Below, piece by piece: positions 4,893 through 57,866 of a DNA stretch of 64,000 nt. The notes below the pieces were generated by a model, which was not told where the DNA came from, ran no database searches, and saw nothing but the letters and a program-made list of their open reading frames with translations. This stretch comes from an uncultured euryarchaeote (GTDB taxonomy: Archaea; Thermoplasmatota; Poseidoniia; Poseidoniales; Poseidoniaceae). Position numbers and translations under genes: made by a program. Every line of letters begins with the position of its first letter. Position 1 is the first letter of the stretch. Where the stretch lies: NCBI GenBank assembly GCA_937892945.1, contig CALBIL010000058.1:27961-91960 (forward strand), given 5' to 3'.

Positions 4893-4947
4893 GGTTGGCC
4901 ACGTTCGCAATAGAACATCAAGACTTCTCTTGAAGAATACGGCGAAA

Positions 4948-16060: not shown

Positions 16061-16150
16061 GATGTGGCCTTTAGCGGTGAGCACATGAACTCGTCGCTTT
16101 GGCAACCTCGAACGGACATGTTGAAGTATCGCCGATTTTGAAACGTCATC

Positions 16151-41078: not shown

Positions 41079-41594
41079 TCAATTAGTTGCTGAATCGCTT
41101 TTGAGTTGGCGTTGCTTTTCATCGTATGTATTCCGCATCATCAAAAAAACAGCAGGGTTTCCGACCCACACTTCATTGTCAGGGACATTGCGTGTGAGTG
41201 TAGAACCTGCGCCAAGAACGGCATTCTGCCCGACTGAGCATCCAGCGATAACCGTGGCACCACCTCCAATCACAGCATCATTGCTGATCTGTACCGGTTG
41301 CCATTGTTGAGCGTTGCCCGAAGGCGGATATTTGTCATTAAGGAGTGTACTGTTCGGGCCAAGGAATACTCTGTCACCCAATACGCAACCATCTGCGAGG
41401 TATGCGCCGCCTTGAATACGACACGCATTGCCAAGTACCACTTTACGGCCGATATGGACCAATGCACCGATGGAACAATTTGCGCCAATTTGTGCATTTT
41501 CACCAATATGGCAAGGTTCCCATGCGACACTCCCTCTCTCGAGGTCGAGCCGTTGACCGTTCACTTGACCATCGTTTTCCATTTGATCCCTCAT
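41079..41594 (-). CDS. Hexapeptide-repeat (left-handed beta-helix) acyl/acetyltransferase.
   Basis: Imperfect hexapeptide periodicity runs through IGENAQIGANCSIGALVHIGRKVVLGNACRIQGGAYLADGCVLGDRVFLGPNS...IGGGATVIAGCSVGQNAVLGAGS. The gene abuts the downstream gene with no spacer. Confidence 0.8.
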   Translation of the reverse strand: MRDQMENDGQVNGQRLDLERGSVAWEPCHIGENAQIGANCSIGALVHIGRKVVLGNACRIQGGAYLADGCVLGDRVFLGPNSTLLNDKYPPSGNAQQWQPVQISNDAVIGGGATVIAGCSVGQNAVLGAGSTLTRNVPDNEVWVGNPAVFLMMRNTYDEKQRQLKSDSATN

Positions 41595-42214
41595 TCGTTC
41601 AAGCCGAGTTCACGAAGAAGCATACCTACGTGTCCTTTGGCTTTTACATTGTAGCGGAGCCAAGAAAAAGCCCCATCGGGTGCAATAACGAACGTAGAAC
41701 GTGAACAACCCATGTACTCTCTTCCGTAATTCTTCTTGAGGCGCCAGGTGCCATATGCTTCATGCAGTTCACCTTCCTTATCCATCAGAAGCGGGAAATT
41801 CAGATCTTGTTTCGTGATAAATTTCTCGTGAGAGCCTTCGGAATCTTTAGAAACGCCAAGAATGACATAGCCTTCTGATGTTAAACGGGCCATGTTGTCA
41901 CGGAAGTCACATGCTTGGGTTGTGCAACCAGGGGTTGAATCGCGCGGATAAAAGTACAGAATAACTGATTTTCCAGCACTTGAATATGCTTGCAAATCAT
42001 GGAGAATTCCGTTTGAATCTTCACAATTGAATGCGGGAGCTTTTTGTCCGACTTCATGTGTTCTTGCTTCGTTCATGTTGCTCGGACTTGCATGAGGGAC
42101 ATGAAGCATTGCATTTCCTTCTCTTTGATTGAAAGAATACTTTTCCGTCACCAATTCGTCGATAAAAAGCGCTTTAATCGGTACTTTATGCGAAGTGGGT
42201 ATGCTCTCTTGCAA
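41591..42214 (-). CDS. bcp: Bcp-type peroxiredoxin (thiol peroxidase).
   Basis: It has GQKAPAFNCED and the active site VILYFYPRDSTPGCTTQACDF. The true start may be ATG 42109 or 42076 (MNEARTHEVGQKAP), since the first ~46 aa have no counterpart in typical Bcp proteins. Its stop overlaps the acetyltransferase start by 4 nt. Confidence 0.85.
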   Translation of the reverse strand: MQESIPTSHKVPIKALFIDELVTEKYSFNQREGNAMLHVPHASPSNMNEARTHEVGQKAPAFNCEDSNGILHDLQAYSSAGKSVILYFYPRDSTPGCTTQACDFRDNMARLTSEGYVILGVSKDSEGSHEKFITKQDLNFPLLMDKEGELHEAYGTWRLKKNYGREYMGCSRSTFVIAPDGAFSWLRYNVKAKGHVGMLLRELGLNE

Positions 42215-42276
42215 TAAGGGTGAATCAAAGATAAGCGACCGATTCTTTCAATAACCGGTGTGTGTTAAGTGAGTTC

Positions 42277-42708
42277 ATGGTGGCTACGCGCATGTCTCGA
42301 AGATGTCGTCGCTACTCCAAGCAAATCCAGCGCGCTAATTCAAAAATCGACCTCCAAACAATTGCCAGCACCATCCAATCCGAGATGGACAAGCGTAATC
42401 TCACATACGATGAAGCACTCACTCTTGGCAACATCATACAAAACAGAGCAGACCAACTCCCAGGCGATACAATCGTTTACGCTATTTCTGACCGAGACGC
42501 CTATCGCCGTACTTTGGAACTGTACTTGCGTGACGCTCTTTTGACTCGAACCGAGCAGATGTTGCTTTGGGAAGAGCGCCGACGCCTTGGAATCTCTGAG
42601 CCTGAGCATGAACGCTTACTTGACCAACTCCTCTTGCAATGGCGCCGCCAAGGAAAGAAAGTCACTATCGCTCGTTTCGACACCCCAGGAGGTGAGACAT
42701 CTGCTTAA
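42277..42708 (+). CDS. Small basic cytoplasmic protein, hypothetical, with TerB-like helical repeats. First gene of the block that continues into the archaellum operon.
   Basis: The ORF is about 143 aa with no TM or signal peptide. Repeated helical units of the type LTRTEQMLLWEERRRLGISEPEHERLLDQL weakly resemble TerB / DjlA N-terminal domains. The track start at 42262 is GTG; the first ATG is at 42277. Confidence 0.5.
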   Translation: MVATRMSRRCRRYSKQIQRANSKIDLQTIASTIQSEMDKRNLTYDEALTLGNIIQNRADQLPGDTIVYAISDRDAYRRTLELYLRDALLTRTEQMLLWEERRRLGISEPEHERLLDQLLLQWRRQGKKVTIARFDTPGGETSA

Positions 42709-45700
42709 AATTCAGTTCAATCAGTCTACTTTGGCAACGCTCCTCGTTTTACTTTTCATCGTCCCCTCCTTCTTACCAGTTGTTGGCGCAGATAGTGATG
42801 AAGAATCAACAACCAGTGGCCGTAATCCCCAACTCGACTTCTTTTTCCGAGGTGCTTTACAACTCAGCAACTCGGGCTCTTCTACGATTGGCAACAGTTT
42901 GTATCTCGAACCAGGTGAACACACGATCTCTGCAAATGTTTCAGCCACAGGCTCCGGAAGTGGGGAGTTTTGGTTAGTCCTCCAACACAAAGGATCTCCT
43001 ATCCTTGGATTTTCCGATATTACGACCGTTTCCATGGGCACACTCACCGGTACCGGCGGGACGACTGACCTTCCATCTGTTTCTTTTTCATGGAACGCTA
43101 CGACAGGTGCTGGACAAGAACTGAGGGTCAAAATTGTCTCAACGAATGAAGCTGGAGTTCAACTTGGAAACAATATCCAACCGCTTGGACTCGCTTTCTC
43201 GGTCGAAAACAAACATTTTGGAGAAGTTCTTGCGAACACCTTCCCGGAAACATCCCCCCTTAACTCGCAGATGACCTTATCCAATGCAATTCATCTGCTC
43301 AATGCTACTGTGACGAATTCTGGTGTCAAAGCCATTTCCGCTCAAATGACTATTGTGCTGCGAGATAATTCAACACCTGCAGTTACACAAACTCTCCTCT
43401 CCAATACCGTGACGTTACAACCAGGATCTTATCCTGCTTCGACCTTGACTATGCAAGATTCGGACGTCCTCAGCGTCAGTCTCGATGCATCTGCTTTGAC
43501 CGGTGTTTGGAATATTTCAGCAACCGTTACCTTTAGTGGTACGGCGTGGAGCGAGACGGCTTCTGTCAACGAAACATGGGTTAAGTTCTCAGATTATAAT
43601 GCGGTTGTTCTTGAACCATCTACGTTGATTGCTGAGCCTGGTGAATCAACCATCGTGACCTTTATTGTCAAGAACACTGGTGTTGCAAGTGACCTGTTTA
43701 CAATTTCAATGGCTGAAAGTGCTACTCCCGCTTGGACCACAGGAGTAGCGCCGAGTTTTGGAGCCACACTCACCCCAGGTTCAATCCGCCTCGTCACAGT
43801 GGCAGTGGATGTCCCAGCGTCCGCAGTACGTTCGGATACCAACAAGATTACGCTTACGTTTACATCTGTTGCCGGAGCCACCGATACCCCTGCTTCGAAT
43901 TATCAAATTATTGCGAGCGGAAGGGTCATGGTTGGCGATTTCTTCAATGGCACAGTCACCTTGACTCAAGGCCCACAACCCAAGCCAATTATTCCCGGTG
44001 GTGAAGCCACATTTGCCGCAGTCGTCGAAAATACCGGTAGTGTCGCAACAGCATTCACTCTTACAACTGGGCTTTCAGTGAATGCTCTCAATTGGACCGT
44101 CTCCGTTCAACCAGCAATCACTCCAGTGATTTCTTCAGGGGCTTCAACCATCGTACAAGTCACACTCACGGCTCCACCGATACAAAACCCCATTGTCACA
44201 AGTGAGCACAACATGGCATATGACCAACTCAATGTGTGGGTTCAATCTCAACCGATTGGCGGCGGTGTCCCCCACATCGATGAAGCACCCCTGAAAGTTT
44301 CACCGGTGATTACCGTCGACCCTGGCTTGAGTACTGAAGCATATACATTAACGGTCTCAGAACTTGAGGCAGCGATGACCGGTACGGTCTATTCAAAGCA
44401 CCCAGAACTTAATCTCCGGGTCCTTCATAACCTTCCGAATGCACTCCTCGCCGAAACTCTCGATGCAACGATCACGGTGGCCAAGAGCTTCACTGCCAGA
44501 AACTCCGGTGGTTTTAGTGAATCTCCACGATGGGATGTGTCGATTTCCAATCCGATTTATACTGGATTAACACCCGGGGAGAGTGCGGACACAACACTCA
44601 ATATCGCTGGACCACAAGCGGGGCAATATCCGCTTGCTGGAACGTTTACGGCTGCAGTCACCGTCACTCCAACCCTCAGTGCACCTTTGAGTGGAAGCGG
44701 AGTAACAGCGGTCCCAATCACTCAAAATTACGACCTAATCATTCCATCAATTATACGAGGGACCTTCCTTGAATCCGGCCCATATGACATTCCAGTTGGC
44801 ATTGATAACGCCATTCCTATGAATTTTGCAAATCTCGGAAACGATGCAGGTTCTTTTCGACTCCGTGTCGTCAACAACCTTCCCGAAAATTGGAGTGCTA
44901 ACTTCAGTGACACCGATTCAGTAATCAGTAATCTCACAGCAGATATTGCGGACGGAACAATCGATTCAGGTATCCCTGGTGGCAACATCACACATACGCA
45001 AAGAGTCACATTCAATGTAAAGACTGATTCATTAGCTCCTGCTGGATTGGAGCAACCAATTACGGTCCGTATTGAAGACCCTCTCTCAGGTCAACTCATT
45101 GGTGATGAATTCGAGTTTATTGTGAAGGTTGGGCAAATATTCAACGCCACATTGTCTCCAACAAATCAAACTCAACACATGGATGTCTCGGAAGAAACCT
45201 TCACTTCAGTCTACATTCGAAATACAGGCAATGCACCTGCCGACTTTACGATTACACTCGACACCTCATTGGCAGGAGCAGTAGACTTTGAAATCGAATC
45301 ACCAACCAATTCAAAGATCTTTATCGCAGCAGGCTATGAAGAAGCAATCCGAATTAAAATGACTGCGAATCCAGGAGCGAATGCCGATGGATTCTACATG
45401 GCGACAGTCCAAGTTTCTGCGAACGATGGCCAAATTTTACTCTCCTCGAACTTGGTCGCTAATATCTCCGAATTACATAGTTTCAGTATCACCGCGCCTT
45501 CACAAATGTCTGTGACGCCTGGCCTGCTCGAAAAGGTGGACTTCGAAGTCATGAACAATGGCAATTCACTCGAAACGGTAACCATCGAGTTCGCAGTTGA
45601 AAACATGACCCTTTCAGTTGACGGTGGAATTCCTTCGAATCTCGTTTCAATGACTCAAACGATTCCAATTGGTGGTTCCATTTCGGACCAAGTTTTTGTC

Positions 45701-47746
45701 TATGTTCCAAGTCTCGGCGGAGTTACTTCGTTAGCGGAAGGAGATTCCTATGACCTCACTATTACTGTCAAGAATTTGACTTCTGGAGTGCCTTATGAAG
45801 GCGAAAGAAGAGTTGAATTATTGGTTCAACCTCTGTTCATTGTCGAATCAAATGATTGGCCTTCGACAATGGAATTCCGGCCAGAATCTGACCGTACATG
45901 GGAAGTGACACTAACCAACACCGGAAACCAAGATGTTACGGTGTATGCAACCTATGCGATTACCCGTCCTGGGCTTTCAAATTTGTCTGCGGATTGGGAA
46001 ATGGTCACAGAATCTTCACAGATTTATCTTGCACGAAACATTCCAACTGTTCACACCTTCACTGCCGTGGGGACTGTTGCTAATCCTCTCTTGTCGTTGA
46101 CGGCTGACCTCACATTGTACCTTTCTCCGGTGAATACTTCTGTCGAAGGGGAAGGGGAATTCACCTCACAATTGATTATGTCACGTTTCTTCTCTACTGA
46201 AGACATCGGTATATCTCCGAATGATGATGATGGTCCAATTGATCTCGACATCAAGTACACTCATATCCCAGTTGGCAATGGTTCTGATGTTGCCTACCAG
46301 GTCGAATTATGCAACTCTGAACGACTGAGAGACATCACTGCTCTCGGGCAAAATCCATTGAATTACTCTTGGGACTTTACCCTTGTTGAAACAAGGCAAG
46401 ATGGCACAACCGTTGATCATGCCTTGGATTTAGAGCAAGAATGTGGGAGCACTTCTCTTGGCCCCACATCGCGATATAACCTCCCGTTACAATCGCCTTG
46501 GAATCCTTCATCATTTGCCATCCGAGCAGATATCCCGGAACGAGGGAATATGCTACCCGGCGATGGATGGGACTTGACATTCCGTTTGTATCATCCAGAT
46601 GAAAACTCAAATTACACTCAGTATGATGAAGAAACGTTCACACTCGTTTTGGCAGTGTTTGCAGATCCGGCCGTCATAAGTATTACTTCTTCCAACGAGT
46701 TCGTTGAAGGCGCAGAAAGTATAGTTTCTGTACTGGTTCGAAACCTTGGTTCAGCAAAAGCTCTCGATACGATGGTTTATCTCGAATGTGATGGAATGAT
46801 TGTGTCCACTGAAACGGACAAAACCCCTCGCCTTTTCGCTGGAAGTGTTACAGGTGGTTTGCCCCAAGTCATGATTAAAGAATTTGATCCAGGTGAAAGA
46901 ATCACACTCCAATGGTATGTTACAGCCGATACGGTTGACTGGTGGTCACAGTCCTCTAAAGCCAAATGCACAGCATCGGTTAACGCATCATATATGGTGA
47001 ACAATGTTGAAATGAACGATCAAAAGTCACTCACTTCTGAAGTTTCTTCGTGGTCTCCAGGTGTTTCAAACAGTTTCATTGCCAGTATTGCATGTTTGCT
47101 TGTATCTTTCATCCTGTTCCGTCTCACTGCTCAAAACGATAATTTCCGTTTGCTTGGAATTTATTCAGGAGTTCTTGGTCTCGGCTTTTCATTCCATCTC
47201 TTTGATGAATTTTGGTGGGGCTTCATTGTCCTTGGAATCTCAGCGCTTTGGATTTGGAGAGTCAGTTGGGGCAGTACTGAGGAATTCAGGTTACTCCACG
47301 AAGATTACCAACGTGCACGCAAAGGGGTATCTACCTTGTATACCGATCACTTTGATGGATTGAAGAAAACCCGTCGCCAACTCAGTGTGATTTTGGCTGT
47401 GCCGGTACTCGGAATGCTTGCTGTTGTTCTTGGAATCCCTCCAAAAATCCCAGCCGACCAAACGAACTTGATTAGTCTCGTAGCATATGTTACAGTCATC
47501 ATTGTTGGAGTTTGGATTCTCATCAAGCGAGCAGACACTACCTACGGCTCCTTGTATGGCCGTCTTACAGATCTTGAAGTGAAGTCCATACGTCTTGAAA
47601 GGGACCTTGGCGACCCTGCTCGTCTGTTTAACGAACTTGCATCTGATGGATTGAATCTCGACGAGATTTTTGGTGATGTTGAACCTTCAAGAGCAGGAAT
47701 TTCAGAAGGCGTTTTCTCTAACGAGGAGGTGATGGATGATGTCTGA
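42692..47746 (+). CDS. Giant (~1680-1719 aa) envelope protein with a signal peptide, at least 8 CARDB/NEW3-like beta-sandwich repeats, a five-helix polytopic membrane anchor and a 73-aa cytoplasmic tail.
   Basis: Repeat signatures are TVTNSGVKAISAQMTIVL, TFIVKNTGVASDLFTISM, AAVVENTGSVATAFTLTT, FANLGNDAGSFRLRVV, VYIRNTGNAPADFTITLD, FEVMNNGNSLETVTIEFA, VTLTNTGNQDVTVYATYA and VLVRNLGSAKALDTMVYLE. There are many N-x-S/T sequons. Five TM helices lie at nt 47075-47524. The start is uncertain. GTG 42692 gives M-RHLLKIQFNQSTLATLLVLLFIVPSFLPVVGA/DS, a good signal peptide. Alternatives are TTG 42731, ATG 42608 and TTG 42587; the last two overlap the upstream gene by about 100 nt or more. Confidence 0.8.
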   Translation: MRHLLKIQFNQSTLATLLVLLFIVPSFLPVVGADSDEESTTSGRNPQLDFFFRGALQLSNSGSSTIGNSLYLEPGEHTISANVSATGSGSGEFWLVLQHKGSPILGFSDITTVSMGTLTGTGGTTDLPSVSFSWNATTGAGQELRVKIVSTNEAGVQLGNNIQPLGLAFSVENKHFGEVLANTFPETSPLNSQMTLSNAIHLLNATVTNSGVKAISAQMTIVLRDNSTPAVTQTLLSNTVTLQPGSYPASTLTMQDSDVLSVSLDASALTGVWNISATVTFSGTAWSETASVNETWVKFSDYNAVVLEPSTLIAEPGESTIVTFIVKNTGVASDLFTISMAESATPAWTTGVAPSFGATLTPGSIRLVTVAVDVPASAVRSDTNKITLTFTSVAGATDTPASNYQIIASGRVMVGDFFNGTVTLTQGPQPKPIIPGGEATFAAVVENTGSVATAFTLTTGLSVNALNWTVSVQPAITPVISSGASTIVQVTLTAPPIQNPIVTSEHNMAYDQLNVWVQSQPIGGGVPHIDEAPLKVSPVITVDPGLSTEAYTLTVSELEAAMTGTVYSKHPELNLRVLHNLPNALLAETLDATITVAKSFTARNSGGFSESPRWDVSISNPIYTGLTPGESADTTLNIAGPQAGQYPLAGTFTAAVTVTPTLSAPLSGSGVTAVPITQNYDLIIPSIIRGTFLESGPYDIPVGIDNAIPMNFANLGNDAGSFRLRVVNNLPENWSANFSDTDSVISNLTADIADGTIDSGIPGGNITHTQRVTFNVKTDSLAPAGLEQPITVRIEDPLSGQLIGDEFEFIVKVGQIFNATLSPTNQTQHMDVSEETFTSVYIRNTGNAPADFTITLDTSLAGAVDFEIESPTNSKIFIAAGYEEAIRIKMTANPGANADGFYMATVQVSANDGQILLSSNLVANISELHSFSITAPSQMSVTPGLLEKVDFEVMNNGNSLETVTIEFAVENMTLSVDGGIPSNLVSMTQTIPIGGSISDQVFVYVPSLGGVTSLAEGDSYDLTITVKNLTSGVPYEGERRVELLVQPLFIVESNDWPSTMEFRPESDRTWEVTLTNTGNQDVTVYATYAITRPGLSNLSADWEMVTESSQIYLARNIPTVHTFTAVGTVANPLLSLTADLTLYLSPVNTSVEGEGEFTSQLIMSRFFSTEDIGISPNDDDGPIDLDIKYTHIPVGNGSDVAYQVELCNSERLRDITALGQNPLNYSWDFTLVETRQDGTTVDHALDLEQECGSTSLGPTSRYNLPLQSPWNPSSFAIRADIPERGNMLPGDGWDLTFRLYHPDENSNYTQYDEETFTLVLAVFADPAVISITSSNEFVEGAESIVSVLVRNLGSAKALDTMVYLECDGMIVSTETDKTPRLFAGSVTGGLPQVMIKEFDPGERITLQWYVTADTVDWWSQSSKAKCTASVNASYMVNNVEMNDQKSLTSEVSSWSPGVSNSFIASIACLLVSFILFRLTAQNDNFRLLGIYSGVLGLGFSFHLFDEFWWGFIVLGISALWIWRVSWGSTEEFRLLHEDYQRARKGVSTLYTDHFDGLKKTRRQLSVILAVPVLGMLAVVLGIPPKIPADQTNLISLVAYVTVIIVGVWILIKRADTTYGSLYGRLTDLEVKSIRLERDLGDPARLFNELASDGLNLDEIFGDVEPSRAGISEGVFSNEEVMDDV
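47725..47735 (+). promoter_or_regulatory. Near-perfect Shine-Dalgarno site for the proline-rich protein gene, embedded in the last codons of the giant gene.
   Basis: GGAGGTGATGG lies immediately before ATG 47736, with the GGAGG core 6 nt upstream. This closely matches the canonical complement of the 16S rRNA 3' end (GGAGGTGATC). The two genes overlap by 11 nt. Confidence 0.6.
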
Positions 47747-48845
47747 CTTGAATTCTGCTGATTTAACCTCTGAAGAAAAGAACAGCGATGTATTACCTCA
47801 ATTCGAGGACGGGATAGATTCAACACCACCCCCGCCACCTTCATCCGACACACCACCCCCGCCACCTTCATCCGACACTCCACCTCCGCTTCCACCAGGT
47901 GCTACTGACCATTCCTCGGCGGATTCCCAACTCAATGAAGAAACATTGTCAAGCATGTCTGAAGAAGCCATCGAAATGTCTCAACAACTCGAAACTCTCG
48001 TGATGGGCGTTGCTCAAGATGACACAAACTCACTTGCAGGTACAGAACTTGAAATTGGGGCTGCAAGGAGATTTTTACATTCGCACAATCTTCGCCGGGC
48101 TATGGCGAGTGTTAAAAATGCAGAACTGTCACTGGTTGAACTTGAAGAAGATGTCTTGTACCTTCGACGAAACATTGCCATGTTACACCGATTGCTGAAT
48201 GAGAAGAAGGTGAGTGAACACGATATTGAAACGATTCTTCTCCGACTTCGCAGCGCCACTGGTGCTGCTGAAATTGGTGATGTAGGCGGCGCAGCAGGGG
48301 AAGTTGAATACCTCGTCGATGATTTGATCGGGGGAAATACTTCGACGCTCAACCCGTTCCTCTTCCGTCATTTTTGGATGGGACTGGAAACACGATGGCC
48401 AGCGGGCGGAGATGAAGGCGTACTTGTTGTTCGTATCATCAACGACGGTCCGGTGGCTATGCCACCAATGCGTCTTTCTCCACCAGTTCCTGAAGGATGG
48501 ACCTCAATTCCAGCCTCTGTCGACCTTCCGACCATCGCACCTGGAGGAAACCTCCCTGTCCGATTCAATGTGTCAACGAACCGTCGTCAATCTTCAGATG
48601 AAATACCCCTCTCACGAAAACTAGCAATAACGACTGGCTATGAAATACGTACCGGTGAAGTCTTCATTACCATCCGAGCTCAGAACCGCTCAATGGAACC
48701 TCTTTCAGATATTCTTCTTTCTCCATGGTTCCCACCCGGTTATACTTCCGATACTATTCCTTTCGTGGAACGTCTTGTTCCTGACGAAGTGGCGATTATT
48801 CGAATGCCCCTTCGCATCAACATGAAATCAGGAGGTACTTCCTGA
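47736..48845 (+). CDS. Proline-rich / coiled-coil protein with a C-terminal beta-rich (CARDB-like) domain. Hypothetical, with no signal peptide or TM.
   Basis: The acidic N-terminus is followed by TPPPPPSSDTPPPPPSSDTPPPLPP. A heptad-like helical segment reads ELSLVELEEDVLYLRRNIAMLHRLLNEKK. The C-terminus reads VLVVRIINDGPVAMPP...PGGNLPVRFNVS...VAIIRMPLRI. Confidence 0.65.
   Translation: MMSDLNSADLTSEEKNSDVLPQFEDGIDSTPPPPPSSDTPPPPPSSDTPPPLPPGATDHSSADSQLNEETLSSMSEEAIEMSQQLETLVMGVAQDDTNSLAGTELEIGAARRFLHSHNLRRAMASVKNAELSLVELEEDVLYLRRNIAMLHRLLNEKKVSEHDIETILLRLRSATGAAEIGDVGGAAGEVEYLVDDLIGGNTSTLNPFLFRHFWMGLETRWPAGGDEGVLVVRIINDGPVAMPPMRLSPPVPEGWTSIPASVDLPTIAPGGNLPVRFNVSTNRRQSSDEIPLSRKLAITTGYEIRTGEVFITIRAQNRSMEPLSDILLSPWFPPGYTSDTIPFVERLVPDEVAIIRMPLRINMKSGGTS
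47823..47897 (+). repeat. 27-nt tandem repeat: two perfect copies plus a degenerate third, encoding (TPPPPPSSD)n.
   Basis: acaccacccccgccaccttcatccgac occurs at 47823-47849 and again, identically, at 47850-47876. It is followed by actccacctccgcttccacca. Confidence 0.9.
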
Positions 48846-48893
48846 ATTCTATCCTATTCCCCCCTCATATGGGAGGTTACAACAGGTGAACTT

Positions 48894-49469
48894 ATGAAAG
48901 AAAATACAAACGAAAAAAGCGATACTCTCGCAGCGATTGGTATTGGTGCCATGATTGTCTTTATCGCATTGATTCTGGTTGCCGCAGTTGCTGCAGCAGT
49001 TATTATTCAAACCGCTGAGAAGTTGCAACAAAATGCTCAAACAACCGGGGCTGAGACAACCGATATGTTATCATCGAAAGTTCTTGTAATGAGCGTTATA
49101 ATCCCTTCAGCAGATGCATTATACATCACTTTTGAACTGGCACCTGGTTCCTCTAATATGGACCCTCGTGATGTTGATTGGTCTATCATTTGTCAAAGAG
49201 ACACTGATAACAATGGAGTCCCTGACGCAGGAGGTGCAGAATACGGCACATTTGCAGCAGCATCCACTGTTGGATCAGCAGCAGCAGTCAACGGTTTGTT
49301 AGTTGCTCACACGACCTATGATATCATAATTCCAGCAGGTGATTTAACCAATTGTCCTCCTGCACAAAATGAAGACCACACCCTTTTGATACAATCTCAA
49401 GCAGGTGGTTTCACATTTGAAACACTGAATTATGGTTCAGATGTTACTTCAGGGGCGGTGGTCGTATGA
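48894..49469 (+). CDS. arlB: Archaellin (archaeal flagellin) 1.
   Basis: It has a class III signal and the conserved hydrophobic N-terminus AAIGIGAMIVFIALILVAAVAAAVIIQTAEKLQQNAQTTG. Length is 191 aa. An AGGTGA Shine-Dalgarno site lies 4 nt upstream. Confidence 0.9.
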   Translation: MKENTNEKSDTLAAIGIGAMIVFIALILVAAVAAAVIIQTAEKLQQNAQTTGAETTDMLSSKVLVMSVIIPSADALYITFELAPGSSNMDPRDVDWSIICQRDTDNNGVPDAGGAEYGTFAAASTVGSAAAVNGLLVAHTTYDIIIPAGDLTNCPPAQNEDHTLLIQSQAGGFTFETLNYGSDVTSGAVVV

Positions 49470-50092
49470 AGAGAGAATCACAAGACATTCAAGATGACAA
49501 GTTTGCAGCAATTGGTATCGGTGCAATGATTGTCTTTATTGCACTCATCTTAGTTGCAGCAGTTGCAGCAGCCGTTATTATTCAAACAGCTGAAAAACTC
49601 CAACAGAATGCACAAACAACCGGTGAAGATACCTCGAAAAACTTGGCTGGAAAACTCTTGATCAACGCTGGGTTTGTGGCAACCGGTGCACCCGGTGCAC
49701 CTGCTAACTACGATGCTGAGGACGCATACACGCTGTATGTTCGTCTCGCACCAGGCAGTAAGCCAGTGAAAATCAATGAAATTAGTTTCCAAATCATGTG
49801 TGACAGTGGTATCATCGAAGGTATCTTTTCAATTGGTCAAGCAGGCGATATCGCACTGTTGGACCAAGGCGACGGTGCCGTTCTTGGTGGGACCACGGAA
49901 CTCCAACCGGGTCAACCATACGTTCTTTGGATCGATGCTGACCAAGATGGGATTGATTGTTCCGCTAACAATCTCAATGCGGCCAATGTTCGAGACACAA
50001 CCATTCAACTCTACATTCACGTAGGAACAGGTGGAACAACTTACGAAGTTCTTACCCTTGGTTCAGATGTTGCTGGCTCAGAGGTGATTTGA
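49466..50092 (+). CDS. arlB: Archaellin 2.
   Basis: The 40-residue N-terminal segment is identical to archaellin 1, while the variable domain is diverged. Length is 208 aa. Its start overlaps the archaellin 1 stop by 4 nt (ATGA). Confidence 0.9.
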   Translation: MKRESQDIQDDKFAAIGIGAMIVFIALILVAAVAAAVIIQTAEKLQQNAQTTGEDTSKNLAGKLLINAGFVATGAPGAPANYDAEDAYTLYVRLAPGSKPVKINEISFQIMCDSGIIEGIFSIGQAGDIALLDQGDGAVLGGTTELQPGQPYVLWIDADQDGIDCSANNLNAANVRDTTIQLYIHVGTGGTTYEVLTLGSDVAGSEVI

Positions 50093-50133
50093 GACTTCTT
50101 TGCTTCGGCTTAGAATGTTAAGGAGGAATATGT

Positions 50134-50973
50134 ATGGCATGGCCTTTTAGTAAAAACACCGCTCAAAACCAAGACGCGGACGCTGCTCTTACGGAAGAAC
50201 GCCTCAAGATAATGGCAAACATTGCCATTGAACAGGTGCCTCTTCCCGAGGAAGGAGAACTCAACGCAGAAGATGCGTGGACCATCAGCCCTGGACTTAC
50301 CATGGCTCGTCTCAACAGCATTGGTAGCGTACCAACTGTTGCTGCATCTCTTTCAACCGTTGCTGCAGCTCCTACCCAAGTGAACACAACCGTGGACACT
50401 TCTGGACTTGAACGCTTGATCAGTAATCGTCTCGACATGGTTGAAGACGTTTTACGAATGGTAGAAGTTCGATTGAGTGAAGCTTCGGCTGGCGCTCAAG
50501 ATGCTGAGTCACATTCAGAAGATGGTGGTGAACATTCCGTTCACTCCGGTGATACAATTATCACTGCTTCTGGACAAACAATCAGCGCATCTGGTACTGA
50601 AAGAATGATGGGAACCGATGAGGCTCCACTTGTTGAACTGTATGAAGCACAAGCTTTGGCTGCAAATCCATTTTTGCACGCCCCTTCATTTGGTGCAACT
50701 ACCGAAGCAAATCAAGTGGGGGCGCCTACAATTTCAGCCCTCTTACTCGACAACATGTCGGGCATGGCAGCAGTTAGTTTTGCTCAAAAAGCAATGGCTT
50801 CCGGTATGCTTTCCGACGATGAAGGTCGAAAGGTACTCGCAATTGTTCAACTTGCAGAACCAGGACAATCAGAAGCAGCTCTCGATGACCATTTGACACA
50901 CAAGGAGTTGCTTACGTTTTCATCGCTTGTAAGTTCATGGCGAAACGTGAAATCACTTCGAGGTGAAGTCTGA
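50134..50973 (+). CDS. Acidic Ala/Ser/Thr-rich soluble protein in the operon position normally occupied by ArlC/D/E. Hypothetical.
   Basis: The 279-aa ORF has no TM and an AAGGAGGA Shine-Dalgarno site 6 nt upstream. One helical segment, LERLISNRLDMVEDVLRMVEVRLSE, is present. I see no recognisable FlaD/E signature. Confidence 0.6.
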   Translation: MAWPFSKNTAQNQDADAALTEERLKIMANIAIEQVPLPEEGELNAEDAWTISPGLTMARLNSIGSVPTVAASLSTVAAAPTQVNTTVDTSGLERLISNRLDMVEDVLRMVEVRLSEASAGAQDAESHSEDGGEHSVHSGDTIITASGQTISASGTERMMGTDEAPLVELYEAQALAANPFLHAPSFGATTEANQVGAPTISALLLDNMSGMAAVSFAQKAMASGMLSDDEGRKVLAIVQLAEPGQSEAALDDHLTHKELLTFSSLVSSWRNVKSLRGEV

Positions 50974-50974
50974 C

Positions 50975-51619
50975 ATGGGTGCTTCGGTCGGGGTTGGAGG
51001 TCTCATTATTGGGATCTCTATGTTGATGGTCTTTTCAATGGCCGTCACAACGTTGAGCAATCAAACGGCTACCTCGCTGGAAGCCATTGAATCCGCTCAA
51101 CAACCTGACCCAATCATCACGATTGATAATGCTAATTTTATACCAATTGCCGTGCATTCAATTGATGTCATCTTTGGAGGTACAACCAGCAGTTATGTGG
51201 ACGGTTTTCTCACGTCTCCAAGTTGTCCTGGATTTAGTGCAAGTTTCACAGTTCTCAATGGTGTCATTGAAGACAGTGTCGTCATTGTAAATTCAGGTAG
51301 TTGTTCCGTTATCCCTGCTGATGTCACGGTTGATGCCCAGGCCGATGCAGGTGCGACATTCGATGTATTCACACAGAGTTACCTTTTTGCGAATGTGACG
51401 AACGGTGGTACTGAAACGATTCCAACAGACAGTGCTTGGCTCTTCTTTGATGGTATGTCACCTCAAACGCTTGCATCTGCAAGTTTTGTTGTCCAAGATT
51501 TTGACAACTGGTTTTCTGGCGAAACGATTGAAATCTTTTGGGACAATGCCAATCAGCATACTCGATTGAGTTTAACCGTTGATGAAACAAGTGTATCTCG
51601 AGCAATTACATCCATCTGA
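50975..51619 (+). CDS. arlF: ArlF (FlaF)-like archaellum protein.
   Basis: The archaellin-like hydrophobic N-terminus is MGASVGVGGLIIGISMLMVFSMAVTTLSNQ, followed by a beta-rich domain. It sits directly upstream of arlG-H-I-J. A GAGGTGAAG Shine-Dalgarno site lies 6 nt upstream of ATG 50975. The assignment rests on synteny plus N-terminal architecture. Confidence 0.65.
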   Translation: MGASVGVGGLIIGISMLMVFSMAVTTLSNQTATSLEAIESAQQPDPIITIDNANFIPIAVHSIDVIFGGTTSSYVDGFLTSPSCPGFSASFTVLNGVIEDSVVIVNSGSCSVIPADVTVDAQADAGATFDVFTQSYLFANVTNGGTETIPTDSAWLFFDGMSPQTLASASFVVQDFDNWFSGETIEIFWDNANQHTRLSLTVDETSVSRAITSI

Positions 51620-51628
51620 GGGGTTTGA

Positions 51629-52126
51629 ATGGCAGACGGCGGTGCATCTACAATCATAATGTTGGTTACAGCATTATTGATATCGAGTGCTGTAAGTGCT
51701 GTTCTTGTTCAAGAATGGTCTTCGACCTCTCGTGCGATCGAATTGCAACAAGAAGGGTTACAACTTTCTGAAGAGATTGGTATTGATTTTGCTGGTGACC
51801 CAATGATGGTGTCACTTTCGACGAATCCGGGTCCGAAAGATATTACGTTTTACATTCAGAATACAGGAATCCATACGATGGACGTCTCCACTCTTGGAGT
51901 TCTTGTAGACGGAGTGAACATCGATGTTGATTCAACAGCATTTGTACCAGCAGGTTCAGGAATATGGTCTCCGAATGTCTTACTCGAAGTAACGCTCGTT
52001 GTTGGAGCAAATGCATTTGATGATGGTCAGGAAATCTCATTGTATGCGATTGCAAGATCCGATGGAGTCTCCGGAATCTCGGCGAGTGCAAGTATGAACG
52101 AGGAGGTGCGATTGAATGAATCATAA
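51629..52126 (+). CDS. arlG: ArlG (FlaG)-like archaellum protein.
   Basis: The N-terminal hydrophobic helix is GGASTIIMLVTALLISSAVSAVLVQEW, followed by a beta-rich domain (ITFYIQNTGIHTMDVSTLGVLVDGV). It sits immediately before arlH. Confidence 0.65.
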   Translation: MADGGASTIIMLVTALLISSAVSAVLVQEWSSTSRAIELQQEGLQLSEEIGIDFAGDPMMVSLSTNPGPKDITFYIQNTGIHTMDVSTLGVLVDGVNIDVDSTAFVPAGSGIWSPNVLLEVTLVVGANAFDDGQEISLYAIARSDGVSGISASASMNEEVRLNES

Positions 52127-52859
52127 TTCGAATGAAAGCGATCCATTCAAAGCTGCCCATAAGCCAGTTGAGGATGGTTTTCCATACGACCTTGAAACTG
52201 ATTCACTTGCTGATTCGATGGGTCTCCGCCTTCCAAATCGTTCACTCTATGTTCTTCAAGGCGCTGTTGGTGGCGGTAAATCATTGGTATCTCAACGTCT
52301 TGTTTATGGAATGGTCGAGAACGGTGTCAAGGTACTTGTCATTACCACAGAACTAACCACACGTGGTTGGATTGAACAAATGGAATCGATTGGATATGGG
52401 ATTACAGATGCTATCCGTGATGGGAAACTTATGGTGTTCAGCCGGTATGGCTCCATTGCCGAAGCGACACCCGATGTTGATCTTATCCAACTTCTCGATT
52501 CCGAAGCAGTCGAACTTGCTGATGTCGTTGTTATCGATTCAGCAAGTTCCTTGATGCCTTCTAACCTTGACGATGCCCATCGCTTCAAATTAATGCAACG
52601 CCTTCGCCAAATTTCATCTCAAGGCCGTTCACTCATGCTTTGTGTTGACCCCGTTGAAATGGATGAAAAGTTGATGCATAACCTTCGAAGTTCTGCTGAA
52701 GTAGTCTTAGACCTCATGACCACGATGATTGGAGGCGAAATTAAACGGAATGTTGTCGTCACTCGTTACTTACGTGCTGCAGGTCCTGTTCAAACTTCAA
52801 TCGGATGGCGAGTTGAACCGAGTATGGGCTTCATTGTAGATATTACCGCAGTGAGCTGA
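52116..52859 (+). CDS. arlH: ArlH (FlaH), a KaiC/RecA-like ATP-binding protein of the archaellum motor.
   Basis: Walker A is LQGAVGGGKSLVSQRL and the Walker B-like strand is DVVVIDS. Length is 247 aa. Its start overlaps arlG by 11 nt, and a GGAGGTG Shine-Dalgarno site is present. Confidence 0.85.
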   Translation: MNHNSNESDPFKAAHKPVEDGFPYDLETDSLADSMGLRLPNRSLYVLQGAVGGGKSLVSQRLVYGMVENGVKVLVITTELTTRGWIEQMESIGYGITDAIRDGKLMVFSRYGSIAEATPDVDLIQLLDSEAVELADVVVIDSASSLMPSNLDDAHRFKLMQRLRQISSQGRSLMLCVDPVEMDEKLMHNLRSSAEVVLDLMTTMIGGEIKRNVVVTRYLRAAGPVQTSIGWRVEPSMGFIVDITAVS

Positions 52860-52872
52860 TGGAGGAATTGTG

Positions 52873-54591
52873 ATGGCTGAAGATGAAACACGATTCGCTA
52901 AAGGCGACCTTACCAGTGTCATGAATGCGTATCCCCATGTAGCAAATTGGGTTCGTGACTTTGAAGCGCAATACGGTACACGTCCAGTCTATTACGGGCC
53001 TCTTGACAGAGATGCCAAAAAACAACGCCCACTCAATCTTATCTATCTGGCCAAAGAGCCAATCTTTATCCACATTTATGAGCCTCCGGTTGATGAAGAA
53101 GGTGGTGGGCAGGTTCTTTGGTTTGGACTCGAGCCACAATTGACTGAAGAAGAAGAAAACATCCGCCGTGAACTTGTTGAAGTGCTTCTACAAGAAGCAC
53201 CAAGCGCTCCTTCCTTTACTACAGACAGTGAGTTTGAATCGATTTTGGCTCAAATGATTGAGAAATATACGGTGCTTGAATCAGACCTTACAACTTCCGT
53301 TCGACGTCAAGGTCGAATTTGGGAAATGATGGGGTTAGATGACAAGCGGATGATTGTCACTCCTGAACAACGTGAACTTTTACAATATACAATTATTCGT
53401 GACTTGATTCGAAACGGTCCCCTTGAACCTCTCCTCTCAGACGAGATGTTGGAAGATATTCACTCCATTGGTCTGAAGCATGTGCATATGGACCACAAAG
53501 TGTTTGGAATGGTCACATCCAATATACGATTCCGAGATCGAGAAGTCCTCGCTCGGTTCTTACGAGCGATGTCTGAACGTATTGGCCGTCCCGTATCGGA
53601 TAATCGTCCAATTATCGATGGTGCTCTGCTTGATGGTTCTCGTATCAATATCATTTTCTCTGACGATGTTTCAATGCTTGGTCCATCGTTTACTATCCGT
53701 AAGTTTGCTGAAGAAACGATTTCAATTACTCAATTAATTGCATGGGGTACGATTTCAGCTCAAGTTGCAGCCTACATCTGGATTTGTCTTGAATACGGTA
53801 TGTCCGTTCTGGTTTCGGGAGAAACAGCATCGGGTAAAACAACGACACTCAATGCGATTTTGCCGTTTATCGACCACAATGTCAAAATTTATTCTGCTGA
53901 AGATACACCGGAAGTTAAAGTTCGACACAAAATTTGGCAACGCCTGGTCACTCGCCAGTCGAAGAATGAAGATTCAAGTGTTGAAATGTTCGACCTCCTC
54001 AAAGCGGCTCTTCGTAGCCGTCCGCGATACATTATCATTGGAGAAATTCGTGGTGTTGAAGGTGCGACAGCCTTCCAAGCAATGCAAACAGGTCACCCTG
54101 TTATCGCAACGTTCCACGCATCATCAATCGTGAAAATGATTCAAAGATTCACTGGCGACCCGATCAATGTTCCAATTCGTTTCTTCGATAACTTGAATTT
54201 CGCTATTTTCCAAGAAGTTGTAGAAGCACCTGGTGGTGGAATCGCTCGACGTGTTACAGGTATCGATGAAGTCATTGGTTACAATAAACACAGTGATGGT
54301 GTCCTCACACGTGGAATGTTCGAATGGGATCCTGTAAAAGATAAGCATTATTTCCGAGGAATGTTCCAAAGCCACTTGCTGGAAAATAAAATTGCTGCAA
54401 TGGCAGGCTTCGCCAATAAGCGTGATATTTACGATGAAATGCTCAAGCGTGCTGACGCTCTTCAACGCATGGTTGATCGAGACTTAACGCATTATGATGA
54501 TGTCTTTGATTTACTTGGAATTTACTACAACAGTGGTTGGGATTATTTCGACAAGGCAGTGGATTCTTGGAAAGGCATAAACCATGACTGA
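52873..54591 (+). CDS. arlI: ArlI (FlaI), the archaellum assembly and motor ATPase (type II/IV secretion ATPase superfamily).
   Basis: Walker A is SGETASGKTTTLNA, the Asp box is AEDTPE, Walker B is RPRYIIIGEIRG and the His box is GHPVIATFHA. A GGAGGA Shine-Dalgarno site lies 6 nt upstream of ATG 52873. Confidence 0.95.
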   Translation: MAEDETRFAKGDLTSVMNAYPHVANWVRDFEAQYGTRPVYYGPLDRDAKKQRPLNLIYLAKEPIFIHIYEPPVDEEGGGQVLWFGLEPQLTEEEENIRRELVEVLLQEAPSAPSFTTDSEFESILAQMIEKYTVLESDLTTSVRRQGRIWEMMGLDDKRMIVTPEQRELLQYTIIRDLIRNGPLEPLLSDEMLEDIHSIGLKHVHMDHKVFGMVTSNIRFRDREVLARFLRAMSERIGRPVSDNRPIIDGALLDGSRINIIFSDDVSMLGPSFTIRKFAEETISITQLIAWGTISAQVAAYIWICLEYGMSVLVSGETASGKTTTLNAILPFIDHNVKIYSAEDTPEVKVRHKIWQRLVTRQSKNEDSSVEMFDLLKAALRSRPRYIIIGEIRGVEGATAFQAMQTGHPVIATFHASSIVKMIQRFTGDPINVPIRFFDNLNFAIFQEVVEAPGGGIARRVTGIDEVIGYNKHSDGVLTRGMFEWDPVKDKHYFRGMFQSHLLENKIAAMAGFANKRDIYDEMLKRADALQRMVDRDLTHYDDVFDLLGIYYNSGWDYFDKAVDSWKGINHD

Positions 54592-54601
54592 GGGATGATG
54601 T

Positions 54602-56404: not shown

Positions 56405-56444
56405 GAATCCCAAAAACCATAACCCCGTTCTAAGAATTCAATTC

Positions 56445-56900
56445 ATGCAAAGCCTTCCGCCACCACCTGTCCCGCAAACGATTCGCCCGGTTGCCACACC
56501 AGCGTCTCCTTATCAACCTGCAGCAGGATTCCAGCAATCCTCAATGAGTTATTCCTTTCACCGTTGGCTCATGTTGGGTGTTGTCCTTCTTCTCTCTTCA
56601 GTGGTGTTTGTCGAAGTCATCGATATGTTTGGTCCACCATCGGTCGTTGATTACAACATGGAGCAAGAGAATATTGCGGAGGTTATTGCAGACGATACCG
56701 AAGCCCATGCTGATTTAACACGGGTTATTTCGTCAGTTGCAAGTATTTTGCAAGCCTTTGGCTTGGGTCTGATTGGTTATGCTTTGCTTCGTGAATCCCA
56801 TGATGGTAAAAACGAACACACTGCTTTACGTGTTACAGCAGTCATCGTTGGAATCTTGGTGCTTACGAGTATTGTTTCTCAACAAATCTCCATTTTCTGA
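56445..56900 (+). CDS. Small membrane protein with a proline-rich N-terminus. Hypothetical; last gene of the archaellum block.
   Basis: ATG 56445 gives MQSLPPPPVPQTIRPVATPASPYQP, followed by three hydrophobic helices (WLMLGVVLLLSSVVFVEVI, VASILQAFGLGLIGYALL, VTAVIVGILVLTSIV). It lies 40 nt after arlJ on the same strand. Confidence 0.55.
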   Translation: MQSLPPPPVPQTIRPVATPASPYQPAAGFQQSSMSYSFHRWLMLGVVLLLSSVVFVEVIDMFGPPSVVDYNMEQENIAEVIADDTEAHADLTRVISSVASILQAFGLGLIGYALLRESHDGKNEHTALRVTAVIVGILVLTSIVSQQISIF

Positions 56901-56902
56901 GG

Positions 56903-57562
56903 TCACCGCTTCTTTTCGTAGGCGATACGTTTCTTTGTGGCCGTCCATGAACAAATTGGACATTGGGTAAGGTCATGCCCTCGGGCAGGGCAATATTCTC
57001 TTCCAAAAAAGATGATTTGCAAATGCAGTTTATTCCACAACTCCTTTGGGAATATCGCCTTTAAGTCACGTTCAGTACGTTCAACCGTTGTATCATTCGA
57101 TAAGCCCCAACGAGCAGCGAGACGATGAATATGTGTGTCGATCGGGAACGCTGGAACTCCAAAGGACTGTGCCATTACGACGCCTGCTGTTTTGTGACCA
57201 ACACCTGGCAAGTTTTCGAGGTGTTCGAAACTTTGAGGTACGATTCCATTATGGCGTTCAATCAATAATTCAGATAACCGAAGTATATTCTTTGCCTTTG
57301 TCGGCGCCAAACCGACTTGTCGAATATCCTTGAGAATTGTATCTACACTGAGTTGAACCATTGTCTCGGGTGTTGGTGCTTTACCAAACAAGGCTGGAGT
57401 TACTTGGTTGACTTTGACATCGGTTGTTTGGGCACTCATCAATACCGCAACCAGTAATTGGAAGTCATTTTGATGGTCGAGTGGGACAGGTGTCTCTGGG
57501 TAGAATTCTTCCAGCATGTCAACAATACGTTTTGCCTTTTCACTTCGCTTCATATTTTTCAC
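56903..57562 (-). CDS. nth: Endonuclease III (HhH-GPD DNA glycosylase/AP lyase).
   Basis: Motifs seen are LLVAVLMSAQTTD, the HhH motif LENLPGVGHKTAGVVM, and IDTHIHRLA. The C-terminal Cys loop is CPARGHDLTQCPIC; only three Cys are visible, not the canonical four. Confidence 0.9.
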   Translation of the reverse strand: MKNMKRSEKAKRIVDMLEEFYPETPVPLDHQNDFQLLVAVLMSAQTTDVKVNQVTPALFGKAPTPETMVQLSVDTILKDIRQVGLAPTKAKNILRLSELLIERHNGIVPQSFEHLENLPGVGHKTAGVVMAQSFGVPAFPIDTHIHRLAARWGLSNDTTVERTERDLKAIFPKELWNKLHLQIIFFGREYCPARGHDLTQCPICSWTATKKRIAYEKKR

Positions 57563-57866
57563 CTTGGAGCGTCAACAATTGTGGAGGTACTCGATAAACG
57601 TAGTCGATACCCTTTCCAAACAATTGAATTATATGTTCATCGGGTTCGAACACAACACGTTCAACAGTTGCATCAATTCCATGCAAAGGCATTGCTGCAG
57701 CAAAACCCCCGTTTCGATAAAGAGTGAGACTTGTTTCGACTTTCTCAGGTGGTGAACTGAAACAGAGATGTTCTTCACTGTGTTCGACATGTCCATTCAC
57801 GGAGAGGAAAAATGCTTGAAAGTATTGAGTGAGTTCGGACCATTGTTCTACAGTACATTCGAACAT
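57540..57866 (-). CDS. Hypothetical soluble protein (108 aa).
   Basis: The ORF sits between the small membrane-protein gene (57876..58085, downstream of polX) and nth on the same strand, and its 3' end overlaps the nth start by 23 nt. I recognise no motif. Confidence 0.45.
   Translation of the reverse strand: MFECTVEQWSELTQYFQAFFLSVNGHVEHSEEHLCFSSPPEKVETSLTLYRNGGFAAAMPLHGIDATVERVVFEPDEHIIQLFGKGIDYVYRVPPQLLTLQGEKYEAK

Follow-up and report, generated by a model that had tools for sequence, protein, structure and literature searches.

The archaellum motor is built around ArlH, ArlI and ArlJ, and lineage-specific cytoplasmic scaffolds that surround it, the ArlX ring in Crenarchaeota and ArlCDE in Euryarchaeota, are encoded within the arl gene cluster. 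In ArlD/E and ArlX, an acidic N-terminus of variable sequence precedes a helical or coiled-coil region and a C-terminal domain that is conserved. The polar cap is a proteinaceous motor anchor of euryarchaea, and no genes have been assigned to it or to other motor-anchoring structures (PMC5517150). Makarova et al. (2016, PMC4858521) predicted that large surface (S)-layer-like proteins and cytoplasmic coiled-coil proteins recur as additional components in the type IV pilus loci of archaea; their archaellum section names seven components common to all archaellated archaea (FlaA/B, FlaC/D/E, F, G, H, I, and J) and mentions no extra of envelope or S-layer-like type for archaellum loci. Here we analyze three genes at the 5′ side of the archaellum operon in a 64,000-nt stretch of euryarchaeal DNA (GenBank assembly GCA_937892945.1, contig CALBIL010000058.1, positions 27,961–91,960; hereafter the window). 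They are g1 (42277..42708, + strand), the giant (42692..47746, + strand), and g3 (47736..48845, + strand), which encode proteins of 143, 1684, and 369 aa, respectively.

Poseidoniales are the most abundant archaea of surface oceans. The window derives from a member of the Poseidoniaceae (Marine Group II a) with a G+C content of 46–48%, and the best homologues of all three proteins are named Poseidoniaceae or Poseidoniales. We conclude that the three genes probably constitute a Poseidoniales-specific accessory module of the archaellum cluster, with the giant and g3 as its invariant core, and we assign a probability of about 0.7 to some form of joint action of module and archaellum. In its general form, the original prediction of a lineage-specific module functionally coupled to the archaellum is thus supported by linkage, restricted distribution, and rate covariation. 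The same locus was drawn as the 'putative MGII (Marine Group II) motility operon' in Figure 4 of Tully (2019, PMC6336850), where syntenic orthologous hypothetical proteins in and around FlaA/G/H/I/J and conserved flanking genes in Marine Group II a are indicated; in that account of the operon, the hypothetical proteins carry no architecture, distribution outside the operon, or functional proposal. The linkage reported here is solid and the organisms are uncultured; the mechanism proposed below is inferred.

Linkage of the three genes to the archaellum operon

Positions 42277–56900 hold one unbroken run of + strand genes in the order g1, giant, g3, arlB1, arlB2, arlC-like, arlF, arlG, arlH, arlI, arlJ, and a 151-aa gene. 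The archaellum operon is complete without g1, the giant, and g3, and the three 5′ genes are therefore extras. The end of g1 and the start of the giant overlap by 17 nt. As predicted, the g3 ATG lies within the stop end of the giant in an 11-nt overlap, preceded by the Shine-Dalgarno (SD) site GGAGGTGAT. The spacer between g3 and arlB1 is 48 nt, and the junctions after arlB1 measure -4, 41, -11, 9, -11, 10, and 10 nt. The genes thus have the hallmarks of an operon, being on the same strand at short or negative distances with no terminator ahead of arlB, in the window and in relatives. The earlier description of a one-strand run with gaps of no more than 48 nt holds when the final gene is started at ATG 56445, giving 151 aa as in relatives, and not at TTG 56337 of the open reading frame (ORF) list.

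A g3 profile was searched against 1.84 billion representative proteins and matched 61, with eight full-length clusters at 50% identity. An archaellin gene lies directly 3′ and a giant homologue directly 5′ of g3 in seven of these clusters; the eighth (P0124) is represented by a 1.7-kb contig that ends just past g3, and there the C-terminus of the giant still abuts g3. Giant homologues occupy the same position in every lineage, measure 1570–1731 aa where the contig holds the whole gene, and in every lineage end at a stop codon that overlaps or abuts the g3 start. In a count of 100 loci, the giant abutted g3 in 97/97, and an archaellin gene was found within 400 nt 3′ of g3 in all 88 loci with at least 400 nt of downstream DNA. 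A metagenome scan anchored on g1 produced 384 relatives; the best 80 of these loci were examined, and in each the order is g1-giant-g3-arlB up to the contig end. Homologues of g1 number 560, and those listed or named are all from Poseidoniales. The adjacency anticipated for the module, with its genes always beside arlB, was therefore observed for the giant and g3 in every lineage that has them, and no homologue of g3 or g1 was found at an unlinked locus among 180 loci and 61 representative clusters.

The order g1-giant-g3-arlB...arlJ is universal in 80 species-representative Poseidoniaceae genomes, but so are the flanking epimerase, flavin reductase, hexapeptide transferase, ahpC, and HhH-GPD genes. 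Synteny within the Poseidoniaceae was accordingly rejected as weak functional evidence, housekeeping flanks being just as syntenic, and distant lineages were therefore sought. Three arrangements (types A, B, and C) were recovered from Marine Group II b, in which g3 is 25–30% identical to the window protein. Type A is flanked upstream by unidentified genes and downstream by MscS, and an extra 1050-aa gene separates g1 from the giant; type B is flanked by genes for DNA primase, DUF373, and PolD. The order giant-g3-arlB is intact in types A and B despite the changed flanks, and in type C as well. Of 75 loci, 72 had g1 upstream; the remaining three belong to type B, in which no g1 homologue was found within 10 kb.

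These arrangements bear on the simplest alternative, that unrelated envelope genes have stood beside the arl operon since the Poseidoniales ancestor without any functional link. Synteny is generally high in the Poseidoniaceae, where the genes for the epimerase, flavin reductase, AhpC, and HhH-GPD keep their positions just as firmly, as such neighborhood by descent would predict. It would not predict that giant-g3-arlB stays together in types A and B while the flanks change, or that the g3 and g1 families are found nowhere else. According to Rinke et al. (PMC6461757), the archaellum operon occurs in every genus of Marine Group II a and in half of those of II b, and Tully (PMC6336850), in his account of the operon, places it in all II a subclades and three II b subclades, to which our three II b arrangements may correspond. 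Half or more of Marine Group II b thus lacks an archaellum by these surveys, and no g3 appeared outside an archaellum context. Together with the rate covariation described next, these observations make descent alone very unlikely.

Evolutionary rates were compared over 38 non-identical Poseidoniaceae loci by regressing pairwise distances on the background given by flanking genes and correlating the residuals. The giant and g3 were the pair with r 0.76; g3 and ArlJ gave r 0.61, and the giant and the ArlF-like protein r 0.58. Module genes had mean correlations of 0.36–0.46 with arl genes versus ∼0.10 with the flanks, whereas the flanking genes themselves had mean correlations of -0.08 to 0.33 with arl genes. 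The module thus covaries with the arl genes and not with its flanks, contrary to what is expected of neighborhood by descent. Mantel tests gave p ≤ 0.0005 for nearly all module-arl pairs (g1/arlB1, r 0.19, p 0.03). By these sequence distances, g1, the giant, g3, and the arl genes behave as one evolutionary unit, whichever the cause.

Anatomy of the encoded proteins

The giant is an acidic protein (isoelectric point [pI] 4.35) with a signal-peptide-like N-terminus, an ectodomain of ∼1400 aa built of immunoglobulin (Ig)-like repeats, and a multi-pass C-terminal anchor. An iterated hidden Markov model (HMM) made from the family alignment identified six confident NEW3/CARDB-type repeats (43589..46129, + strand) of about 95 aa each, at aa 300–392, 418–519, 686–796, 815–910, 927–1028, and 1049–1146, with domain E-values of 1e-13 to 1e-19; three further units are marginal. 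The repeats that had been predicted are thus present, but the proposed number of at least eight is not reached by confident units. Pfam NEW3 matches the window protein at aa 314–388 (E 4.3e-5). Scores of the window giant fall just below gathering thresholds for both NEW3 (NPCBM_assoc; 24.1 versus 24.4 bits) and CARDB (20.6 versus 22.7 bits), and the type A orthologue passes the NEW3 cut-off with 26.5 bits. An Ig-like fold is very likely for the giant repeats, and also for the g3 C-terminus; strict membership in NEW3 or CARDB is borderline. Of the family assignments that had been suggested for HMM checking, NEW3 and CARDB thus lie near cut-off for the giant, and TerB, suggested for g1, found no match.

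The membrane anchor and cytoplasmic parts of the giant (47075..47743, + strand) were delimited by hydrophobicity, and their architecture is kept in all lineages. Hydrophobic segments are located at aa 1462–1478, 1487–1504, 1507–1524, 1564–1582, and 1593–1611. They enclose a basic 39-aa loop (aa 1525–1563; EFRLLHEDYQRARKG...DH) and are followed by a C-terminal tail of 73 aa (aa 1612–1684). Three segments pass a Kyte-Doolittle value of 1.6, and those at aa 1487–1504 and 1507–1524, with two residues between them, are only moderately hydrophobic. A polytopic anchor and the 73-aa tail therefore agree with the original prediction, and its five spans are less secure (three strong, two moderate); loop and tail are predicted to be cytoplasmic under either three or five spans. 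In all lineages, both the tail and the loop motif E...H.D...G...(D/N)H can be recognized. Within the Poseidoniaceae, aa 1451–1650, the membrane and cytoplasmic end, are 62–71% identical versus 33–55% for the ectodomain.

The start of the giant is uncertain. The generally called GTG at 42692 falls within the SD-like GGAGGTGA, and no in-frame ATG precedes the signal peptide; candidate starts are GTG 42692, CTG 42701, and ATT 42710.

With its signal peptide, large β-rich ectodomain, C-terminal anchor, and position in a FlaI/FlaJ-type locus, the giant has the attributes of an S-layer-like protein, and it departs from the usual single C-terminal helix by having 3–5 spans and a 73-aa cytoplasmic tail. 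The module resembles the pilus extras of Makarova et al. in combining a large secreted, β-rich, anchored protein with an intracellular coiled-coil protein in a run with a FlaI/FlaJ-type machine, and in both cases function is deduced from context only. Their extras belong to pili, whereas the Poseidoniales module belongs to the archaellum; the anchor of the giant is multi-pass with conserved cytoplasmic parts, and g3 carries an Ig-like sandwich. No sequence relationship links the module to the arCOG (archaeal orthologous gene cluster) families of that study, although no arCOG profiles were searched. ArlF and ArlG, β-sandwich proteins of the envelope that are believed to keep the archaellum in place there, offer a second parallel, and the giant repeat HMM weakly matches the ArlG-like (independent E-value 2.6e-5) and ArlF-like (0.03) proteins of the same operon. 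However, both are already encoded there, the giant is ten times larger, and it begins with a signal peptide and not with an N-terminus of class III (pilin) type.

The g3 protein is acidic and predicted to be cytoplasmic. A variable acidic and proline-rich N-terminus (aa 1–∼65) contains two copies and a partial copy of TPPPPPSSD and is followed by a helical region (∼aa 66–198), the linker LNPFLFRHFW, which is invariant, and a β-sandwich (∼aa 213–361). No hydrophobic segment is present, N-terminal or other. The N-terminal 60–110 residues are variable, acidic, and lineage-specific throughout the family, with the proline repeat confined to close relatives. These features agree with the predicted repeats, coiled coil (here a helical region), CARDB-like C-terminus (here a β-sandwich), and absence of a signal peptide, although the NEW3 match of the window protein is weak (20 bits, E 7.9e-4); NEW3 was seen in 35 of 43 family members (E ≤ 1). 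Other weak Pfam matches of the family are to Alpha_adaptinC2, TPR, and coiled-coil families. The structure prediction that had been called for was carried out with AlphaFold on a 43-sequence alignment that included Marine Group II b and gave a mean predicted local distance difference test (pLDDT) score of 75, from which the boundaries of the helices and the sandwich are taken; a model built from 13 close homologues reached a pLDDT of 55 and was discarded. Foldseek comparison of the model with the PDB returned generic Ig-like sandwiches only (such as adaptin appendage, FixG-related, TRAP, and transglutaminase), and the C-terminal sandwich weakly resembles adaptin appendage domains.

The layout of g3 invites the suggestion that it is a highly divergent motor component of the ArlD/E or ArlX type that has moved 5′ of arlB, with the giant as its membrane tether. 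Its variable acidic N-terminus, helical region, and conserved C-terminal domain are analogous to those of ArlD/E and ArlX. By Pfam, no ArlD/E was detected in the window operon, whose one ArlC-like gene is weak, and high divergence is a known trait of ArlC/D/E proteins (PMC4858521). FlaC_arch (PF05377) and Arch_fla_DE (PF04659) are, however, absent from the Pfam result for window g3 and from the families listed (25 of 56 matched) for the 43 members at E ≤ 1, and an assignment of g3 to ArlC/D/E was rejected for lack of a family HMM match. Profile searches of the PDB with g3 and with the 279-aa ArlC-like protein gave nothing significant, and no sequence or fold match connects g3 to archaellum proteins. 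Compared with the ArlX architecture, an N-terminal transmembrane (TM) helix followed by a coiled coil, g3 has the helices and lacks the hydrophobic segment. Its C-terminus instead matches sandwiches of the NEW3/adaptin-appendage type, and its position upstream of arlB, coupled to a giant envelope protein, differs from that of the known scaffolds. Nor do Poseidoniales have a chemotaxis system on which an ArlCDE-type switch could act (PMC6461757, PMC6864105). We consider this identity improbable. An invariant NPFL motif is common to the 279-aa protein (LA.NPFL) and g3 (LNPFLF), which may be coincidence.

The g1 protein is basic (pI 9.65) and soluble, with an Arg-rich N-terminus and no known domain. 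It is 70–97% identical to the window protein across the Poseidoniaceae and ∼50–55% identical in Marine Group II b, with a near-invariant core, VYAISDRD.YRR..E.YL.D..L.RTEQ.LLW.ERR.LGIS. The prediction of a small basic protein was correct, but its TerB-like character was not supported. Window g1 had no match in Pfam, NCBIfam, or the PDB; TerB (PF05099) matched none of 11 family members at E ≤ 10 in Pfam; and the family profile found no TerB-type structure in the PDB, where the sole match was YggX (E 0.027). A TerB-like identity was therefore rejected, the likeness being limited to the motif DG.L...E...L......LGIS.

Across the Poseidoniaceae, identity to the window proteins is 58–87% for g3, 71–95% for ArlH, mostly 70–95% for ArlJ, and 37–82% for the giant, so that g1 and g3 are conserved on a par with ArlH and ArlJ.

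A possible role at the motor

We tentatively favor an anchor or scaffold at the archaellum motor, at somewhat less than even odds, because the constraint on the giant is cytoplasmic, its partner is dedicated, the linkage to arlB is absolute, the rates track those of ArlJ and the ArlF-like protein, and the operon has no detectable ArlD/E. This lack, together with an ArlC-like gene that is itself weak, could accommodate a cytoplasmic scaffold specific to the lineage. In this model, the giant would be exported, expose its ∼1400-aa array of Ig-like repeats at the cell surface, and be held by its 3- or 5-span anchor, while its conserved basic loop and 73-aa tail would recruit g3. Translational coupling through the overlapping frame would probably yield g3 in amounts similar to those of the giant. 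The two proteins could then form a bridge from envelope to cytoplasm at or around the archaellum base, fixing or organizing the motor in a role akin to that ascribed to ArlX rings, ArlCDE, and the polar cap in other archaea. On the outside, the giant may provide the stator, ArlF/ArlG, with a lattice or collar in the envelope, in which case it would be what the stator grips and not a stator paralogue; on the inside, a helical and Ig-like scaffold may lie beside ArlH, ArlI, ArlJ, and the ArlC-like protein. g1, which would share the conserved promoter, would act as an additional subunit or as a regulator, and may pair with the acidic N-terminus of g3. Stated in full, with the giant and g3 (and g1) tying a surface lattice gripped by ArlF/G to a scaffold around ArlH/I/J and replacing ArlD/E, ArlX, or the polar cap, the model is unlikely to be right in every part. 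If it is, these would be the first identified proteins of an envelope-to-cytoplasm anchor in a euryarchaeal-type archaellum. The module bears on how the ATP-driven archaellum motor is held against its own torque and on what makes up the cytoplasmic and envelope structures around it, the polar cap among them (PMC5517150), and the family-restricted pair of membrane and cytoplasmic proteins are concrete candidates for an anchoring or surface-sensing device.

Adhesion or surface sensing is the core of the most serious competing explanation, which we regard as rather unlikely yet ahead of the other alternatives. The giant would be an adhesin or surface sensor whose Ig repeats bind particles or algae, and g3 and g1 would be cytoplasmic adaptor or signaling partners, co-regulated with the motor without being a structural part of it; the place of the module beside the archaellum genes would reflect joint expression of swimming and attachment, or a relay of surface contact to the motor in a lineage devoid of chemotaxis genes. 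The hypervariable ectodomain built of Ig repeats is what an adhesin would be expected to have. In the motility discussions of the genome surveys, Poseidoniales are without chemotaxis genes and a swimming versus an attachment role of their archaellum is debated (PMC6461757, PMC6336850), and an adhesion role has been proposed for it (PMC6461757, PMC6864105). Several more giant surface proteins are encoded in the window and in its relatives, and in Marine Group II b the clusters contain additional envelope proteins (a PPC-like one and the 1050-aa paralogue). An ordinary adhesin, however, is not expected to have a dedicated, translationally coupled cytoplasmic partner or to remain linked to arlB through rearrangements in every lineage. 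The giant is most strongly constrained in its cytoplasmic and TM part, and it covaries in rate with ArlJ and the ArlF-like protein. These points weaken a sensor role without excluding it. If the link is only co-regulation with an adhesin, motility would still be tied to particle attachment in Poseidoniales. The module offers testable markers of the capacity to swim or attach that can be sought in metagenomes and metatranscriptomes of the ocean.

Several observations weigh against an accessory archaellum module acting at the motor. None of the three proteins has a homology or fold match to a known archaellum, S-layer, or stator component in Pfam, NCBIfam, the PDB, or the Foldseek search with the g3 model, and an ectodomain of Ig repeats that evolves this fast is just as characteristic of adhesins. 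g1 is not obligatory, given its absence within 10 kb in type B. Most of the Poseidoniaceae loci among the 160 are non-independent, leaving 3–4 Marine Group II b arrangements as independent support. The finding of no g3 or g1 outside an archaellum context covers 180 loci and 61 representative clusters, and archaellum-less Poseidoniales genomes were not checked one by one. Rate covariation is descriptive, since the distances are non-independent, and block transfer or recombination could produce as much. Finally, the g3-arlB spacers of Marine Group II b are longer (44–116 nt) and AT-rich, and arlB there probably has its own promoter. An own promoter is usual for archaellin genes, and a separate arlB promoter is no argument against functional coupling.

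Transcription signals and neighboring genes

An imperfect 22-nt palindrome, ACCGATTCTTTCAATAACCGGT (42238..42259, + strand), lies 18–40 nt upstream of the g1 ATG and contains the TATA-like TTTCAATAA. It occurs once in the window and is near-invariant in ∼70 Poseidoniaceae loci whose surrounding sequence varies; the inverted repeat was also detected by a bacterial-type promoter/terminator scan. The palindrome is a likely promoter or operator of the module, judged by its position and conservation, and may be an operator for a dimeric regulator, because it is conserved beyond the needs of a plain TATA box. A variant found in a deeper clade reads GCCAATTGTTTGATAAACTGCC.

The g3-arlB1 spacer contains ATCCTATTCC(A/C)CCC, a short G+C hairpin, and GGGAGG (48851..48880, + strand), followed by the SD GGTGA and the arlB ATG. 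Across the Poseidoniaceae the motif is ATCCTATTCCACCC, a G+C hairpin, GGGAGG(ACGAG), an A-rich stretch, GGTGA, and ATG. One stem pair occurs as four pair types (GC, UG, CG, and UA), with 17 cells changed on both sides, and the observed stem covariation was reached by 0/500 shuffles. The window hairpin is thermodynamically weak (z 0.35), no more stable than shuffled sequence, and the hairpin therefore rests on comparative evidence only. An Rfam scan of 41500–57600 gave no match. No T-run follows the hairpin, and no TATA-like box was seen in the spacer or the last g3 codons. The absence of a TATA box or T-tract from the 48-nt spacer had been predicted and was confirmed by inspection; the bacterial-type scan, which is ill-suited to archaea, gave counts at background and nothing in the spacer. 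Read-through from the g1 promoter, with the hairpin processing or stabilizing the arlB mRNA, is plausible on these patterns, and the hairpin may be a 5′ untranslated region or processing element of that mRNA.

The run is flanked on the opposite strand by ahpC (41591–42214) at its 5′ side and an HhH-GPD glycosylase gene (56903–57562) at its 3′ side. Downstream of g3 on the + strand, arlB1 (48894–49469) and arlB2 (49466–50092) encode archaellins (Pfam Arch_flagellin, E 9e-21 and 2e-21). The gene at the arlC/D/E (or arlX) position (50134..50973, + strand) encodes the 279-aa acidic cytoplasmic protein and is kept in all lineages; it is weakly ArlC-like in that three of eight family members match FlaC_arch (best E 0.0057), the window protein having no Pfam match. 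The ArlF-like (50963–51619; NCBIfam ArlF, E 5e-7) and ArlG-like (51629–52126; NCBIfam ArlG, E 2.4e-15; Pfam Arch_flagellin, E 4e-8) proteins, both below the NCBIfam cut-offs, have N-terminal hydrophobic segments. They are followed, also on the + strand, by arlH (52116–52859; Pfam KaiC-type ATPase), arlI (52870–54591; Pfam T2SSE, E 4e-37), and arlJ (54602–56404; Pfam T2SSF, E 2e-12). The last gene of the run (56445..56900, + strand) encodes a 151-aa protein with three predicted hydrophobic, membrane-spanning segments and no Pfam or NCBIfam match, and a gene for 150–151 aa has the same position in relatives. In type B of Marine Group II b, the place after arlJ is taken by a 330–342-aa protein (L088:18426–19454, L090:18952–19944) with a weak match to Arc_PepC_II (prepilin peptidase C-terminal).

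The genome is rich in giant envelope proteins. Three further large ORFs of the window (27329–32458, and 1296–4910 and 13334–16171 on the - strand) each have one C-terminal hydrophobic segment, as predicted for single-pass anchors, followed by a long acidic or Trp-rich tail, and two of the three have an N-terminal hydrophobic segment (in 13334–16171 one lies at aa 37–64). They were rejected as paralogues of the giant, to which they have no BLAST similarity.

Marine Group II b clusters carry extra genes beside the module (L086:1–5221, L092:2751–4750, L088:3739–4911), none of which was found within 10 kb of it in the Poseidoniaceae or anywhere in the window. They encode a 325–352-aa protein with a winged-helix-looking C-terminus and a 257–390-aa protein with an N-terminal anchor and a PPC-like β domain, of which the type A 1050-aa protein has two copies. 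Two cluster contigs, L074 (CAXQWT010000116.1) and L084 (CALDQY010000305.1), come from metagenome-assembled genomes named Salipiger bermudensis and Rhodobiaceae bacterium; it is almost certain that they are archaeal and were binned wrongly. Two long polished contigs, L001 (11265–12417) and L002 (11265–12434), have their archaellin genes broken into several short ORFs, and in the near-identical L003 these genes are intact; the splits are likely homopolymer or frameshift errors in an A-rich region and not biology.

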